Positions 899 to 9,076 of a stretch of DNA of 64,000 bases are shown piece after piece (position 1 is the stretch's first letter; every line of letters starts with the position of its first letter). The notes beneath the pieces are model-generated. The model did no database searches. It saw only the letters and a list, made by a program, of their open reading frames with translations, and was not told the DNA's origin. The stretch covers positions 11,899 through 75,898 of the forward strand of contig JBBSML010000004.1 of NCBI GenBank assembly GCA_038233215.1, in the 5' to 3' direction. The stretch is from Candidatus Limnocylindria bacterium (lineage in GTDB: Bacteria; Chloroflexota; Limnocylindria; QHBO01). The position numbers and the translations under genes were made by a program.

Positions 899-1249
899 AT
901 GAGCCAGCGAACGGATCGGCTTGACAGCCAGATTCGGCAAGAGCTTGCCGATCTGCTCTACCGCGAGATGAAGGATCCGCGCATCGGGTTCGCGACCATC
1001 ACCCGGGTCGAGACGGCGCGAGACCTCGGCACGGCCAAGGTCTGGGTCAGCATCATGGGGACCGATGAGGAGCGGGAGGTGACGATGAAGGCGCTGACCG
1101 ACGCGGCACCCTGGCTGCGCCGGCAACTCGGCGGCCGGCTCACGCTGCGCCACATCCCGCAGCTCGTCATTCGCCACGACGACTCGATCGAGGCGGGTGA
1201 CCGCGTCCTGCGCCTCCTGCGCGAGATCGAGCAGGAAGGTTCCTCGTGA
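899..1249 (+). CDS. rbfA: Ribosome-binding factor A
   Basis: KDPRIGFATITRVE...DL..AKVW, LRHIPQL..D.SIE; conserved position after infB. Confidence 0.96.
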   Translation: MSQRTDRLDSQIRQELADLLYREMKDPRIGFATITRVETARDLGTAKVWVSIMGTDEEREVTMKALTDAAPWLRRQLGGRLTLRHIPQLVIRHDDSIEAGDRVLRLLREIEQEGSS

Positions 1250-2229
1250 GCCGGCAGGCGGTCGTGGAAGCGATCCGAAACGCATCGCGCATCACCGCGA
1301 TCTGTCACGAGAACCCTGATGCCGACACGCTCGGGTCAGCGCTGGCCCTGCGCATCGCCGCTGAGCGCCTCGGCAAGCAGGCCGAGGTGGTTGCGGCCGA
1401 TCCCGTGCCGCCGTCGCTCGCCCAGCTCACCGGCGCCGCCGACGTTCGGACCGCACCGCAGCTCGAACCGGACGTCGCGATCGTGGTCGACGGACCGCTC
1501 TCGCGGACCGGTGCCGTGGCCAGCCAGTCGGCGGACTGGCTGTCGCGGGCGCGAATCGTCAACATCGATCATCACGTGTCGAACGACGGCGGCGAGTCGG
1601 CAGTGTCCTGGATCGATCCGGGCGCCGCTGCGACCTGCGAGATGGTCGCGCTCCTCATTCCGGAGCTGGGTGTCGAGATCGATGTCGACATCGCGACCGT
1701 CCTCACCGCTGGCATCGTCCAGGACACGCACACGTTCTCGCATCCGAACGCGACGCCGCGGACATTGCGGGTCGCGGCGGACCTGTTGGCGGCCGGTGCG
1801 CCGCTTTCGGCCATCCATCGCTCGATCTACGCCGACAAGCCGTTCGGGACCCTCGCACTCTGGGGCCGCATCATGGGCGGCCTGAAGCAGCGGCGCGACG
1901 GCCGGATCGTGCACGCCGCCATGACCAACGCCATGCTCGCCGACACCGGCACCGATCCGATCGCCTCCGAGGGACTGATCGACCTGCTGGCGTCGACCAA
2001 GGCAGCCGATATCACCGTGCTCTTCAAGGAGGTCGACGCCACGCACGTGCGAACGAGCGTACGAACCTCGGCTCGCGCCGATGCGGTGGCCATCACCTCG
2101 GCATTCGGCGGCGGCGGCCATGCGCGCGCGGCGGGTTGTGCGATCGACGGCCCGTTGCCGCAGGCTGCGGCGAAGCTGCTCGACGAGTGCGAGCGGGAGC
2201 TCGACCGGGCCGATGCTCGGGGTCGTTAA
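1246..2229 (+). CDS. nrnA: DHH/DHHA1 phosphoesterase (NrnA-like nanoRNase/pAp phosphatase)
   Basis: HENPDADTLGS, NIDHH, QDT, GGGGHARAAG motifs; rbfA-nrnA-truB synteny. Confidence 0.9.
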   Translation: MSRQAVVEAIRNASRITAICHENPDADTLGSALALRIAAERLGKQAEVVAADPVPPSLAQLTGAADVRTAPQLEPDVAIVVDGPLSRTGAVASQSADWLSRARIVNIDHHVSNDGGESAVSWIDPGAAATCEMVALLIPELGVEIDVDIATVLTAGIVQDTHTFSHPNATPRTLRVAADLLAAGAPLSAIHRSIYADKPFGTLALWGRIMGGLKQRRDGRIVHAAMTNAMLADTGTDPIASEGLIDLLASTKAADITVLFKEVDATHVRTSVRTSARADAVAITSAFGGGGHARAAGCAIDGPLPQAAAKLLDECERELDRADARGR

Positions 2230-3106
2230 CCTCGATAAACCTGTCGGGCCGACCAGCCACGACATGGTCGGCATGATGCGGCGGTTGACCGGCATCCGGC
2301 GCATCGGCCACGCGGGAACGCTGGATCCACTGGCATCTGGCGTGCTGCCGGTCCTGGTCGGTGCCGCGACGCGTTTCAGCGCCGAGCTGACCGGGGGATC
2401 CAAGCGGTACGACGCCGTGTTCCGCCTGGGCGCGCGGAGCGCCACGGACGACGCCGAAGGACCGATCGAAGCGGTCCACGGCCCAGTCCCGGACGAGCCA
2501 GACGTGCACGCCGTCCTCTCCGGCTTCATCGGGACCTTCGACCAGTTTCCGCCCGCGTTCAGCGCGCGGAAGGTGGGCGGTCGGACGGCCTACCGCGCGG
2601 CGCGTGTCGGGGAGCCCCTCGACCTCCCGGCGCGGGCGGTCACGATCCATGCGCTGGACATTCTGGCTTACGAGCGTGTGGACGATGGTGCGGACGTCCG
2701 CATCGATCTGCGTTGCGGCACCGGGACTTACGTGCGGGCCCTGGCGCGTGATCTCGGCGCGCGACTCGGATGTGGAGGCTACCTCCGGGCGCTGCGCAGG
2801 ACGGAGGCAGCCGGTCTGAGGGTGGATGCCGCCGTCACGCCGGAGCACCTGGAAACACTCGCAGCCGATGGTCTCCTGAGAGACGCGCTCTTGCCGGTCG
2901 GCGACCTCCTGCCAATGCCGAAGATCATGCTTGACCGGCACGTGGCAGATGCGTTTCGCAATGGATCGGCCCGTTCCCTGGTGACTTCTCATGCCGACGG
3001 GCGGGTCGCCGTGTTCTCTGGTAACGAGCTGATCGGCATCGGGTCGGTGAGCGCGAACCTCCTTCAGCCGGAGAAGGTTCTGCCACGGGAGTCATCAGCC
3101 CCATGA
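2213..3106 (+). CDS. truB: tRNA pseudouridine(55) synthase
   Basis: NLDKPVGPTSHD, GHAGTLDPLASGVL, GTYVRALARDLG; start placed at ATG 2213. Confidence 0.96.
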   Translation: MLGVVNLDKPVGPTSHDMVGMMRRLTGIRRIGHAGTLDPLASGVLPVLVGAATRFSAELTGGSKRYDAVFRLGARSATDDAEGPIEAVHGPVPDEPDVHAVLSGFIGTFDQFPPAFSARKVGGRTAYRAARVGEPLDLPARAVTIHALDILAYERVDDGADVRIDLRCGTGTYVRALARDLGARLGCGGYLRALRRTEAAGLRVDAAVTPEHLETLAADGLLRDALLPVGDLLPMPKIMLDRHVADAFRNGSARSLVTSHADGRVAVFSGNELIGIGSVSANLLQPEKVLPRESSAP

Positions 3107-4038: not shown

Positions 4039-4153
4039 TGTATGAGGGCGACCGTCCGCCGCGAGATCGATGTCATGGCCCAATATTACGAATGGCGACC
4101 GACAGGCTCGTCTGCTAAACTTCCCGCGTTACAGAATGAATGTGGAGGAATAC

Positions 4154-4423
4154 GTGCCGCTCGCCAAGGACGCGAAAAGCGCAGTCGTCGACGAATACGC
4201 CACGCACGACGGTGATACAGGATCACCCGAGGTGCAGATTGCGCTTCTCACCGAGCGGATCAAGTCACTGACGGAGCATTTGCGTAGCTACCCGAAAGAC
4301 AATCATTCGCGCCGCGGGCTTCTGAAGCTCGTTGGGCAGCGCCGACGTCTGCTCGCGTATCTGGTCCGCAATGATGTGGACAGGTACCGCACCGTCATCG
4401 GCAGCCTGGGGCTGCGCCGCTAG
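4154..4423 (+). CDS. rpsO: 30S ribosomal protein S15
   Basis: [33 protein letters not shown]; GGAGG SD before GTG 4154. Confidence 0.97.
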
Positions 4424-4575: not shown

Positions 4576-7185
4576 GTGGCTATCAAACACGAGGCCGAAA
4601 TCGGCGGCAAGAGCTTCAGTATGGAAGCTGGCAAGCTCGCCGAGCAGGCTCATGGCGCGGTCATCGTCCGCTGTGGCGACACCGTTGTTCTTGCAACGGC
4701 AGTTGCCGGCAAGGAGCCCCGCGAAGGGGCCGACTTCTTCCCTCTCACCGTCGACTACGAGGAGCGGATGTACGCCGCGGGCAAGATCCCGGGCGGCTTC
4801 ATCAAGCGCGAGTCGCGTCCGTCGGAGGCGGCCATCCTGGCCATGCGCCTGACCGACCGACCCCTCCGTCCGCTCTTTCCGAAGGGCTACTTCAACGACG
4901 TGCAGGTCGTCCTGACGGTCCTGTCGACCGACCAGGAGAATGATCCGGATATCCTCGCGCTGAACGGCGCATCGGCGGCCCTGAGCATCAGTCACATCCC
5001 GTTCATGGGACCGGTCGGTGCCGTGCGCGTCGGTCGCATCGGGGGAGAGTTCGTCACGAACCCGACGAACAGCGAGCTCGCCGAGAGCGAGCTCGACCTC
5101 GTGGTCGCCGGCACCCGCGACGCCGTGATGATGGTCGAGGCAGGCGCAAAGATCCTGCCCGAAGCGGTCATGGCCGACGCGATCGCCTACGGTCACAGCG
5201 AGCTCCAGAAGTCGATCGATCTCCAGGAGAAGCTGGTCGCCTCGGCCGGGACGCCGAAGAAGGTTCCGTTCATCGGCCCCAAGGCCGCATCGGTCATCAG
5301 TCTCGGCAAGATGCTCTCCCAGAGCAAGAATGAGTTTGTCGTTTTCGATCTGGAGACGACGGCCATGAAGCCGGAGGCCGGATTCATCGTTGATGTCGCT
5401 GCGCTGCGGCTGCGCGACGGGCAGATCGTCGACCGCTTCGAGTCCCTGGTGAACCCTGGACGTCCGATCGTTGGGCACCAGGTCCACGGCATCAAGACCG
5501 AGGACGTCGCCAAGGCGCCGACCGCGGCGGAGGTGCTCGGCAACTTCGTCCACTGGGTCGGCGAGACCCCGATCGTGGCTCACAACGCCGCGTTCGATGT
5601 GCCGTTCCTGCTTCGCCATCTGCCAAACGACCGCAAGTGGACGCCGGCGGCCGTGTTCGACACGCTCGAGCTCGGTTACCAGCTCTACCCCGATGCGGGC
5701 GCGTACAAGCTCGCTGACCTGGTCCGTTTCGTGTTCGGTCGCGATCACGCCGCCGCACACCGCGCCATGCCGGATGCGGAGGCAACCGCCGAGCTGTTCC
5801 TCCATTTCACCAACGGCCTTTCGGAGCGGCTCGATGCGCTGCGCCAGGAGATCGCCGACGAAGTGCGGGGCGCGCGTGACAACTACAACCGCACCGAGCA
5901 GGGCGATCGGCTCGAGGACATCCGGCGCCGTCACGGCATCGCCTCGCCGCTGATGGACGCTGTGACAAAGGCCACCGTTCGCGAGCTCGTTCTCAGTGAG
6001 AACGTGCGCATCGACGGTCGCGACACGAAGACCATCCGCCCGATCAGCGTGGAGGTCGGCATCCTGCCGCGCACGCACGGATCGGGCCTCTTCACCCGCG
6101 GGCAGACGCAGGCGCTCTCCATTGCCACGCTTGGCCCCTCCAGCAACGTGCAGCGCATGGACACGATTTCCCCGGAGACCGAGAAGCGCTACATGCATCA
6201 CTACAACATGCCGCCGTACTCCGTTGGCGAGGCCAAGTTCATGCGTGGCCCCGGCCGCCGCGAGATTGGCCACGGCGCCCTTGCTGAGCGCGCACTTCTT
6301 CCCGTCCTGCCGGATGCCAGCGAGTTCCCGTACGCCATTCGCGTCGTGAGCGAGTGCGTGAGCTCGAATGGCTCGACCTCGATGGCCTCCACGTGCGGCT
6401 CGACCCTGGCACTCATGGATGCCGGTGTGCCGATCAAAGCGCCCGTCGCCGGAGCGGCGATGGGCCTCATCACCGACAAGGAGACCGGCCGCTACGCCGT
6501 CCTGACCGATATCACCGGCAAGGAGGACGCCTACGGCGACATGGACTTCAAGGTGACCGGGACGGCCGACGGCGTTACGGCGCTCCAGATGGACATCAAG
6601 ACCGGGGGCATCACGATCGAGATCATGCGTGATGCGCTCGATCAGGCACGGGATGCCCGGCTCCACATCCTGGGCAAGATGACCGAGGTCATCAGCGCCA
6701 GCCGCGAAGACCTCAGCCAGTACGCGCCGCGGATCACGACCATCAAGATCCCCGTCGACAAGATCCGGGACGTCATCGGCGCCGGCGGCAAGGTGATCCG
6801 CCAGATCACCGCCGAGACCGGTACCCAGATCAACGTCGAGGACGACGGCACGAGTCAGATTGCCGCCACCACGGGTGAGGCCGCCAAGAAGGCGATCGCC
6901 TGGATCGAGGGCCTGACCAAGGACGTCGAGGTCGGCAAGGAGTATCTCGGCAAGGTGACCCGGATCATGAACTTCGGTGCCTTCGTCGAGATCCTGCCGG
7001 GCAAGGAAGGCCTGGTCCACATCAGCCAGCTCGCGGACTACCACGTCCCGCGCGTTGAGGACGTGGTCAGCATCGGCGACGAGTTGATGGTGGTCGTCAC
7101 CGAGATCGACCGCATGGGCCGCGTGAACCTGAGCCGCCGTGCCGCAATGGAGCGGCACATGGCCAAGGCCGGCGATCGGAGCTGA
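4576..7185 (+). CDS. pnp: Polyribonucleotide nucleotidyltransferase (PNPase) with an internal DEDDh 3'-5' exonuclease domain
   Basis: PH1 ([16 protein letters not shown]), PH2 ([26 protein letters not shown]), KH (VIGAGGK), S1 ([18 protein letters not shown]); extra ~160 aa with FDLETT/HNAAFD/HRAMPD; 869 aa. Confidence 0.96.
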
Positions 7186-7411
7186 GGACCTCGACTCCGC
7201 GCGGAGCATTACTCCACGCGTGACGGAGCGCCGGACATGTCGCCCATGGCATGGTCGGCGCCACGCCCCGATGTACCATCCTCCTGCGGCGCTGCATCAG
7301 GCCCCGCTTCGCGAGACAGAGGTCCGCGACCACGCGGCCTGTCGGTGACGTGGGTGGATGCCCGTCGCCCGCCCGACGACGCGAACAGATGACCCTCTCT
7401 TAGGAGTTCCC

Positions 7412-9076
7412 ATGTCCGATTCCCTGCGCATCATTCCGCTCGGCGGGGTGGGCGAGGTCGGCAAGAACATCACCGTCATCGAGATTGACGACGAGATCCT
7501 GGTGGTGGACTGTGGCCTGGCCTTTCCCGAGCCGGAGATGCTCGGCATCGATCTCGTCATCCCGGATGCGACCTACCTCGCCGAGAACCGCGAGCGCGTG
7601 CGCGGCATCATCCTCACCCACGGCCACGAGGACCACACCGGCGCATTGCCGTACGTCCTTCCAAAGATTCCTGGCACGCCAATCTACGCAACCCGGCTTA
7701 CCGAGGGCCTTGTCCAGGGCAAGCTGCGTGAGCACAAGCTTCTCGACTCGACGCCGCTGCACGTCATCGACCCCGGGCAGGAGTTCGCGGTCGGGTCGTT
7801 TCGGATCACGCCGTTCCGGGTCAACCACTCGATCCCCGACGGCGTCGGGTACGCAATAAGCACGCGTCTCGGGACGGTCGTCCACACCGGCGATTTCAAG
7901 TTCGACCACACGCCGCCCGACGGCCGGCGTGCCGACCTTGGGCTCATAGCCGAGATCGGCAACCGCGGTGTGGAATTCCTGCTCAGTGACTCGACCCGGG
8001 CCGAGAAGGACGGCTACACCCTCTCTGAGACCACCGTCGGGGACAGCCTCAACAGGCTGGTGGGGGAAGCTCCGGGCCGGGTGATCGTGGCGACCTTCGC
8101 GTCGAATATCGGTCGCGTGCAGCAGGTGATCGATGCGGCCTGGGCGCATGGCCGCAAGATGGTCGCCCTTGGCCGCAGCATGGAGCAGAACACGGCTATC
8201 GCGCTGGAGCGTGGGTACCTGGACGCCCGTGACGGCACGTTGGTGAAGAAGGAGCAGCTCCAACGGTTACCAAAGGAAGAGCTCGTTGTCATGACGACCG
8301 GCTCGCAGGGCGAGCCGATGAGCGGGCTCACGCGCATGAGCAACCGAGACCACCGCAATATCACCATCGAGCCCGGCGACACGGTCATCGTGTCGGCCAG
8401 CCCGATCCCCGGCAACGAGGAAGCGGTCGCCAAGACGATCGACAACTTGTTCAAGGAGGGGGCGATGGTGCACTACGAGCCGCTCGTCCACTGCCACGTC
8501 TCCGGCCACGGTTCGCGTGAAGAGCTCAAGCTCATGCTGGGACTTGTCAAGCCCCGCCATTTCGTCCCGATCCATGGCGAGTACCGCATGCTGGTGCAGC
8601 ACGCGCTCCTCGCCGAGGGGGCCGGCGTTGATGTCGACAAGATCTTCGTACTCGAAAATGGACAGGTGATTGAATTCGATGGCCAGAGCGGCCGCATGGC
8701 GGGCTCGGTAACGGCCGGTGCGGTCCTGGTCGACGGGATCGCCGCCATCGACGGCATCGACGGCGTGGTCCTTCGCGATCGGCGCATGCTCGCTTCCGAT
8801 GGCGTGGTCATGGTTGCGCTGACCATCGATGCCAAGACGGGACAGCCGGTCGGTCTCGCGGACCTCGTCAGCCGCGGTTTTCTCTCCGATCCGGAGGACC
8901 CGGTCATGGGCGCGGCGCGTGATCACCTGATGAACGCGCTTCGACAACGACGCGAGGACGAGCACACGGCCGAGGCGGCCTACGTGAAGACCAAGATTCG
9001 TGACACGCTGAGCCGCTACTTCCATCAGCGAACGAAGCGCCGACCAATGATCCTGCCGATCGTGATGGAGGTCTGA
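7412..9076 (+). CDS. rnj: Ribonuclease J
   Basis: PLGGVGEVGKN, THGHEDH, NHSIPD, HTGDFK, TGSQGEP, HVSGH, PIHGE; AGGAG SD before ATG 7412. Confidence 0.97.
   Translation: MSDSLRIIPLGGVGEVGKNITVIEIDDEILVVDCGLAFPEPEMLGIDLVIPDATYLAENRERVRGIILTHGHEDHTGALPYVLPKIPGTPIYATRLTEGLVQGKLREHKLLDSTPLHVIDPGQEFAVGSFRITPFRVNHSIPDGVGYAISTRLGTVVHTGDFKFDHTPPDGRRADLGLIAEIGNRGVEFLLSDSTRAEKDGYTLSETTVGDSLNRLVGEAPGRVIVATFASNIGRVQQVIDAAWAHGRKMVALGRSMEQNTAIALERGYLDARDGTLVKKEQLQRLPKEELVVMTTGSQGEPMSGLTRMSNRDHRNITIEPGDTVIVSASPIPGNEEAVAKTIDNLFKEGAMVHYEPLVHCHVSGHGSREELKLMLGLVKPRHFVPIHGEYRMLVQHALLAEGAGVDVDKIFVLENGQVIEFDGQSGRMAGSVTAGAVLVDGIAAIDGIDGVVLRDRRMLASDGVVMVALTIDAKTGQPVGLADLVSRGFLSDPEDPVMGAARDHLMNALRQRREDEHTAEAAYVKTKIRDTLSRYFHQRTKRRPMILPIVMEV

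Follow-up and report, generated by a model that had tools for sequence, protein, structure and literature searches.

The polynucleotide phosphorylase (PNPase) gene, pnp, of a Candidatus Limnocylindria bacterium (assembly GCA_038233215.1) carries an in-frame DnaQ-like DEDDh 3'-5' exonuclease domain within the alpha-helical domain of the phosphorylase. The gene lies in a stretch of 64,000 nucleotides of contig JBBSML010000004.1 (positions 11,899 to 75,898 of the forward strand), which was analysed as a whole and is referred to here as the window; its own numbering is used for all coordinates. The PNPase-DEDDh fusion is a real, inherited trait of three families of the class Limnocylindria, and with moderate confidence we interpret the protein, from its domains and conserved residues, as a bifunctional phosphorolytic and hydrolytic 3'-5' nuclease acting on RNA ends. 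Few RNA-processing enzymes keep their domain plan as constant as PNPase does, from bacteria through to organelles. While PNPase and the DnaQ-like DEDDh families are themselves well known, a DEDDh exonuclease inside PNPase appears to be new and suggests an undescribed two-mode nuclease. A first-pass annotation of the window, made from the letters alone, knew of no described PNPase with such an architecture, and we likewise found no description of a PNPase with a DEDDh insert in openly licensed (Creative Commons) PMC papers and bioRxiv, supplements not covered.

The pnp gene occupies positions 4576..7185 of the forward strand (stop codon counted in), starts with GTG and is the longest open reading frame (ORF) at the locus, encoding 869 amino acids (aa). 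The order of its Pfam domains together with the predicted helices follows the PNPase plan of PH1, alpha-helical domain, PH2, KH and S1, all parts being encoded on the same strand. PH1 (RNase_PH at aa 12-142 and RNase_PH_C at aa 145-208 in Pfam; 4609..5199) is followed by a pre-insert linker (aa 229-254; 5260..5337), which includes a predicted helix at aa 237-248 and is the least conserved stretch of the protein (dN/dS 0.30 within family f1, see below). The exonuclease domain, recognized by Pfam, NCBIfam and fold, comes next (PF00929, aa 255-408, E 7e-22, 79.1 bits against a cut-off of 24; 5338..5799), with its catalytic residues D258, E260, D341, H395 and D400 encoded at 5347-5349, 5353-5355, 5596-5598, 5758-5760 and 5773-5775. 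Behind it lie the rest of the alpha-helical domain (aa 412-478; 5809..6009) with three predicted helices at 415-432, 439-453 and 457-475, then PH2 (aa 479-715; 6010..6720) with invariant SNGS-SMAS and D651/D655/D657/K659 motifs, and finally the Pfam KH (aa 721-778; 6736..6909) and S1 (aa 784-855; 6925..7140) domains. The protein scores far above the equivalog cut-offs of two PNPase models (TIGR03591 polynuc_phos, 974.3 bits against 525; NF008805, 971.8 against 471), both matches being split in two by the insert, and the second TIGR03591 stretch pairs aa 424-856 with profile positions 256-688. Similarly, the alignment to the solved PNPase 5yjj pairs aa 7-234 with residues 22-247 and then resumes with aa 416-856, paired with residues 280-707, which places about 150 extra residues between residues 247 and 280, where the helical domain begins. 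Across both insert junctions the GC content stays even (0.62-0.68).

Much of what the first-pass annotation had read from this gene holds. It had described an rpsO-linked pnp of 869 aa, and rpsO, the usual upstream partner of pnp, is indeed located directly upstream (4070..4423, forward strand; Ribosomal_S15); its numbering of the five DEDDh residues is exact, and both the RIDGR and the 10-letter PH2 metal-binding aspartate motif that it named are found in the translation. The profile scan it had suggested as a check places RNase_PH, PF00929, KH and S1 above cut-off and the Pfam model of the PNPase helical domain below it (a weak match at aa 458-483, 20.9 bits against 24.6). Its view of a "short, diverged" helical segment has to be revised, as this domain is not much shortened and has one helix (237-248) before the insert and three after it. 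Compared with canonical PNPases (TIGR03591; 5yjj, 7ogk, 4aim, 3gcm), the fused protein is alike in domain order, in the PH2 motifs, in the rpsO-pnp linkage and at about 40% identity, but none of 32 of the PNPase chains ranked 1-49 by Foldseek, which are 482-730 residues long, has such a domain.

The fusion was recovered repeatedly and from independent sources. A word-indexed protein search with aa 225-460 as the query gave 1304 proteins at E <= 0.001, and all 120 of the best matches, which were the ones listed, combine PF00929 with RNase PH domains and are 75-93% identical to the query over this stretch. Among these listed matches 112 of 120 also have KH and S1 domains, and the other eight are shorter proteins (612-835 aa) without them. 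The listed fused proteins stem from NCBI, JGI, ENA and Logan, are located on contigs of up to 2.2 Mb, are named Candidatus Limnocylindria by their sources and carry generic database names. In addition, genomes were scanned with aa 100-600, a query for which a fused gene yields one contiguous match and an ordinary pnp gene two. In a class sample of 201 genomes of Limnocylindria, which comprises five families (f1-f5) and includes the source genome (G000) as a member of f1, the fused gene was present in 64/66 genomes of f1, 60/60 of f3 and 7/7 of f4, with a best E <= 1e-94 for each; wherever listed, these matches run contiguously over query positions 1-501, except for a small number of genes interrupted by a contig end or a frameshift. 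Only split matches were obtained in f2 (65/66) and f5 (1/1), with best E values >= 1.6e-62 and open frames of about 740-770 aa. A similar picture emerged from a phylum sample of 401 Chloroflexota genomes in 83 families, in which 44 contiguous matches were found, 17 in f1 (G000 counted), 23 in f3 and four in f4, and no fusion was seen in the 355 Chloroflexota genomes of other classes, 347 of which had split matches and eight no match. The search across Chloroflexota that the first-pass annotation had proposed thus finds the fusion as a clade trait, in f1, f3 and f4 of Limnocylindria only. The family tallies include some unpublished genomes, the omission of which alters no pattern, and none of these is among the sequences aligned or modelled.

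Near-closed genomes with the fused gene exist (for example G109 and G197, one contig each), the fusion recurs with the same junctions in more than 130 genomes, and 14 DNA sequencing runs from eight studies contain 45-95% of the sampled words of the pnp gene. No close stand-alone relative of the insert was seen in a search of representatives of all libraries, whose close matches were all PNPase fusions, whole or fragmentary; the 17 short representatives that were aligned all cover just part of the fused PNPase, 15 of them at 56-98% identity and two (P0146 and P0154) at 43%. A chimera or misassembly is ruled out by the 120 of 120 listed homologues and by the contiguous genes in the class and phylum samples, and since the independent assemblies include contigs of up to 2.2 Mb, this question is answered without read mapping. 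The class with this trait has been recovered from soil, sediment and freshwater-sediment metagenomes. As a separate observation, the fused pnp is disrupted in some relatives, with an in-frame TAG in G026 (C3:52998-55553) and an in-frame TGA in G171 (C1:2219907-2221338) and G003; altogether an in-frame stop or a split into two to three frames was noted in G026, G171, G003, G008, G014, G022, G178 and G210. As several of these assemblies consist of few contigs, indel errors are as likely an explanation as pseudogenes.

Conservation suggests that both enzymatic parts are competent. The insert is only 38-45% identical between families, compared to 72-76% for PH2; D258 and E260 of the Exo I D-x-E motif, D341 of Exo II, and H395 and D400 of the Exo III H-x4-D motif are kept in 22/22 fused sequences. 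Within f1 (55 pairs) the insert has a dN/dS of 0.135, a sign of purifying selection, compared to 0.080 in PH1, 0.115 in PH2, 0.167 in the helical part and 0.296 in the linker; the values for f3 are higher and probably affected by saturation. In PH2, residues D651, D655, D657, K659 and S597-S605, which we take to be the metal- and phosphate-binding catalytic residues, are invariant in 27/27 aligned sequences, consistent with an intact PNPase core. Structural models point in the same direction. In the full-length AlphaFold2 model the insert reaches a predicted local confidence (pLDDT) of 80-94, and the weak stretches (45-108 and 523-566) are loops of the core. When aa 229-480 were modelled alone, the module obtained a pLDDT of 91.8 and a predicted template-modelling score (pTM) of 0.89, and consists of the helix 237-248, the exonuclease fold and then three long helices. 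This arrangement of one helix before and three after the exonuclease fold suggests that the helical domain was retained, and in the model it appears to hold the exonuclease rigidly. The fold itself is of the RNase H-like exonuclease type; Foldseek paired it with DinG, PolC, epsilon, ExoX and RNase T at E values from 1e-10 to 1e-7.

Comparisons of sequence and structure assign the protein to the PNPase and DnaQ-like DEDDh families, but to none of the subfamilies of DinG, epsilon, RNase T and Orn. The cut-off of the TIGR00573 dnaq domain model (71.5 bits) was narrowly exceeded both with the whole protein (72.3 bits) and with the insert alone (72.2 bits). The best NCBIfam scores of the insert alone were to DEDD-exonuclease, PolC and DinG models, none of them reaching an equivalog cut-off, and the epsilon equivalogs were missed by far (TIGR01406, 73.8 bits against 222.7; NF004316, 65.6 against 196). 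Its best sequence matches in the Protein Data Bank (PDB) were the PolC exonuclease 2p1j (E 3e-20), PolC 9qpc, DinG 8zef, epsilon and ExoX, while the order of structural matches was DinG 8zef, PolC (9qpc), a DnaQ domain and epsilon, followed by RNase T, ExoX, ExoI and TREX. RNase T and Orn were absent from the PDB sequence matches at E 1e-5, and none of their models was among the best 25 NCBIfam families of the 67 and 29 matched by two queries. By these comparisons the insert falls within the DinG/PolC/epsilon branch of DEDDh exonucleases and not within the RNase T/Orn branch. What it has in common with RNase T and Orn is its DEDDh fold with all five catalytic residues; in structure, RNase T chains match from rank 13 on.

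The phylogenetic analyses suggest that the insert was likely gained once, on the stem of f1, f3 and f4, and was then inherited vertically. In a tree of the PNPase core (698 columns, from which the insert columns were dropped by an 80% fill rule, with eight Chloroflexota from outside the class as the outgroup) both the 14 fused rows and the five unfused Limnocylindria rows are monophyletic (100/100 each). Likewise, the fused exonuclease domains form one clade in the trees of the insert, with an SH-aLRT support of 97 in a quick analysis of 152 rows and 98/97 in a careful one of 62 rows, and these trees separate f1 from f3 and f4 as the core tree does. Since the core tree and the insert tree each give a single clade, a single gain is the likely explanation. 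The domain may descend from the exonuclease of a resident DinG, a descent that the data neither show nor reject: the 62-row tree does not recover the insert clade and the resident DinG exonuclease as sisters, its backbone (57/91) lacks resolution as does that of the 152-row tree, and the insert is no nearer to the Limnocylindria DinG exonuclease (34-46% identity) than to unrelated DinG-like representatives (43-44%). A tree that unites the insert and the Limnocylindria DinG exonuclease in one clade was not rejected by the approximately unbiased (AU) test (p 0.665); in this comparison the constrained tree was 25.7 log-likelihood units better than the quick free tree.

The genome-wide distribution of PF00929 domains revealed a further regularity. 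In the source genome (96.5% complete) the insert is the sole PF00929 match. Exactly one match was found in 60 of 67 genomes of f1 (G000 counted; two or more in five, none in two), in 49 of 60 of f3 (two or more in 11, none without), in one of seven of f4 (two or more in the other six), in 50 of 66 of f2 (two or more in 12, none in four) and in the single genome of f5. In five unfused genomes the only above-cut-off match lies in an open frame of 890-1041 aa, and the two of these frames that were scanned contain RNase_T, DEAD and Helicase_C_2, the composition of a DnaQ-DinG helicase-nuclease. In line with this, PF13307, the DinG-type helicase domain, is present in 61/66 genomes of f2 and 1/1 of f5, but in 0/66 of f1, 1/60 of f3 and 0/7 of f4. 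It is absent from four scanned genomes of the fused clade, and G000 has only a 107-aa fragment. The fusion and DnaQ-DinG are therefore complementary in their distribution across the class, and because the families are kin, a single gain and a single loss may be enough to account for this complementarity.

Several observations stand beside this pattern. The fragment in G000 (C69:6-320) represents some 105 aa of a DinG C-terminus, truncated where its 3.6-kb contig begins; it shares 39-48% identity with the DinG of f2 and f5, has a GC content of 0.655 compared to 0.670 for the genome, and is either a binning contaminant or a remnant. The lone PF13307 match in f3 (G108, C10:22156-22632, 81 bits) lies in a 2041-aa frame and probably belongs to another large helicase and not to DinG. 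The f4 genomes with a second PF00929 match besides pnp (G032, G078, G087, G126, G163 and G177) are very small, with 1.0-1.4 Mb at 89-93% completeness, and their second match sets them apart from most genomes of f1 and f3. Besides the insert, the PF00929 scan of G000 revealed neither a recognizable proofreading subunit of the DnaQ/epsilon type nor an Orn or RNase T; replication proofreading is perhaps performed by the PHP domain of DnaE.

Other 3'-5' RNases do not differ between fused and unfused families. RNase PH is present in all five families, each of five genomes tested (fused or unfused) has a DHHA1 match in an open frame of 342-480 aa on the pnp contig, and scans of five class genomes detected neither an RNB domain nor an above-cut-off PF01612 domain of the RNase D type (0/5 for both). 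We also considered a gap in RNases peculiar to the fused clade, and this was rejected, the status of RNase PH, the NrnA-like gene, RNB and PF01612 being the same in both kinds of genome.

In our preferred explanation, a complete PNPase would carry a catalytically competent DnaQ-type DEDDh exonuclease, which interrupts the helical domain behind its first helix and packs on the remaining helices as a single rigid module. Each subunit of the presumed trimer would then possess a hydrolytic site, independent of inorganic phosphate, beside the helical domain, and the same particle could trim single-stranded 3' ends by both phosphorolysis and hydrolysis. The main substrate would be RNA 3' ends, such as decay intermediates and 3' tails released by the ring or stalling it. 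We favor RNA since the PNPase host, the rpsO-pnp-rnj gene row and the KH and S1 capture domains are all RNA-directed, since five class genomes yielded no domain of the RNase R/II or RNase D type, and since no PF00929 domain of the RNase T/Orn type was found in G000 other than the insert. The insert may in addition have taken over the nuclease role of DnaQ-DinG, which is absent where the fusion was gained. The geometry of the PNPase barrel is described in PMC13684590 and PMC13572404. Several points weigh against the preferred explanation. DNA or RNA-DNA hybrids are the main substrates of the enzymes closest to the insert; six RNA sequencing runs contain only 8-13% of the sampled words of the gene and are counted as no evidence; and the AlphaFold2 model of the whole protein is of moderate quality only (pLDDT 77, pTM 0.70). 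The position assumed for the insert relative to the channel follows from where the helical domain lies in PNPase. Finally, the unfused sister families equally lack RNB and RNase D and equally possess RNase PH and an NrnA-like gene, and with repertoires this similar no RNase gap of the fused clade explains the gain.

The same relationships allow for a role on DNA or R-loops, with PNPase serving as a scaffold and as a binder of RNA tails, an alternative that we regard as possible though unlikely. It would fit the reversed distributions of PF13307 and the fusion, the location of the only PF00929 match of five unfused genomes in frames of 890-1041 aa, the Staphylococcus aureus DinG 8zef as top structural match with PolC, DinG and epsilon as best sequence matches, and the joint clade with the Limnocylindria DinG exonuclease, which the AU test does not reject. 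PNPase of Bacillus subtilis and mycobacteria has been linked to DNA repair, which also speaks for such a role. According to a study of B. subtilis DinG, this enzyme degrades single-stranded DNA in the 3'-5' direction and the RNA strand of hybrids in vitro (PMC12525004). However, a complementarity that may amount to one gain and one loss on a single branch is an association and no test, neither the position of the insert clade in the 62-row tree nor the identities bring it closer to the resident DinG, the gene context of pnp is RNA metabolism, and G000 itself contains the DinG C-terminal fragment on its 3.6-kb contig. A bolder version, to which we give somewhat less credence still and which we consider rather unlikely, is that the lineage moved the nuclease head of DnaQ-DinG into the PNPase helical domain and afterwards lost the helicase, creating an exosome-like particle with two chemistries; the complementary distribution, the non-rejection in the AU test and DinG as top structural match make this compatible with the evidence. 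If it were true, one trimer would phosphorolyse RNA and hydrolytically clear single-stranded DNA 3' ends or the RNA of R-loops, uniting RNA decay and genome maintenance in one enzyme.

Among the functions that the first-pass annotation had offered, a role on DNA is kept in play by the DinG complementarity, while the finishing of nanoRNA has lost ground. An Orn-like hydrolysis of the 2-5-nt limit products of PNPase at the exit of the ring would agree with the lack of any other PF00929 domain (Orn/RNase T type) in G000, with the single match in most f1 genomes and with the insert lying on that side of the core which bears the helical domain, as seen in the models and in the known geometry of PNPase. 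An NrnA-like DHH-DHHA1 gene is nevertheless located in the same gene row as pnp, and because such genes accompany both fused and unfused pnp in the five genomes tested, the terminal nanoRNA step is probably already covered, and equally so where the insert is missing. Together with the missing sequence matches to Orn and RNase T at E 1e-5 and the low structural rank of the latter, and given that Orn-type specificity depends on a homodimer, this makes the nanoRNA function distinctly improbable. We consider it highly improbable that the insert is a non-catalytic module for binding, regulation or docking, or else an assembly chimera. DEDD folds without activity exist, but nothing positive was found for an inactive domain here, and the five residues are kept across about 40% sequence divergence under a dN/dS of 0.135; a chimera is favored only by the source being a metagenome bin of 93 contigs, and the shared junctions, the listed homologues and the DNA runs described above argue against it.

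The fused protein can further be compared with systems that are built from similar parts. DnaQ-DinG proteins (S. aureus 8zef, B. subtilis DinG and the f2/f5 protein L036:738-3416) have a DEDDh domain of the same branch, and in the DinG-bearing Limnocylindria as in G000 this domain is the one PF00929 domain of the genome. In contrast to them, the fused PNPase lacks a helicase (no DEAD or Helicase_C_2), its exonuclease is internal and not N-terminal, and its host is an RNA phosphorylase. PolC (2p1j, 9qpc), the best PDB sequence match, likewise has its DEDDh inserted in another domain (in PolC P0160, PHP at 52-408 surrounds RNase_T at 138-293), which indicates that the DEDDh fold tolerates insertion. 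PolC is, however, a DNA polymerase, and no PolC-like gene was seen in the class, where single PF00929 matches lie in pnp or DinG. The eukaryotic nuclear exosome with Rrp6 also unites an RNase PH-type ring, an S1/KH cap and a hydrolytic DEDD 3'-5' exonuclease in one particle, but there the ring is without activity of its own, and the DEDDy (RNase D-type) nuclease Rrp6 forms a distinct subunit close to the cap. The fused PNPase resembles it in outline, whereas its own ring should be active and its nuclease is a DEDDh domain within the helical domain; by this analogy the likeness is one of convergence and not of a homologous arrangement.

The neighbourhood of pnp comprises, in this order, infB, the NrnA-like DHH-DHHA1 gene, truB, ribF, rpsO, pnp, the RNase J gene and ftsK. 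The NrnA-like phosphoesterase, a candidate nanoRNase, is encoded at 1246..2229 of the forward strand, 2.3 kb upstream of pnp, and the RNase J gene directly downstream of pnp at 7358..9076 of the same strand. The longest ORFs of the NrnA-like gene (1246-2229) and truB (2081-3106) overlap by about 150 nt, and one of the two starts is probably located further downstream. Similarly, the longest rpsO ORF has 117 aa, and as the S15 domain spans only aa 37-116, translation probably begins downstream of 4070.

A seemingly active hydrolytic nuclease placed in the helical domain of PNPase and fixed in three families would represent an unreported design of a 3'-5' decay machine. It would provide a natural single-chain model for the cooperation of a PH ring with a DEDD nuclease, following the logic of the exosome and Rrp6, and a test of the role of the poorly understood helical domain, which tolerates and, according to the models, rigidly holds a 160-aa enzyme. 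Moreover, it offers a clean evolutionary case, in which a domain that occurs as a genome-wide singleton belongs to DinG in one of two sister clades and to PNPase in the other, and this makes the purpose of the DinG exonuclease approachable by comparison.

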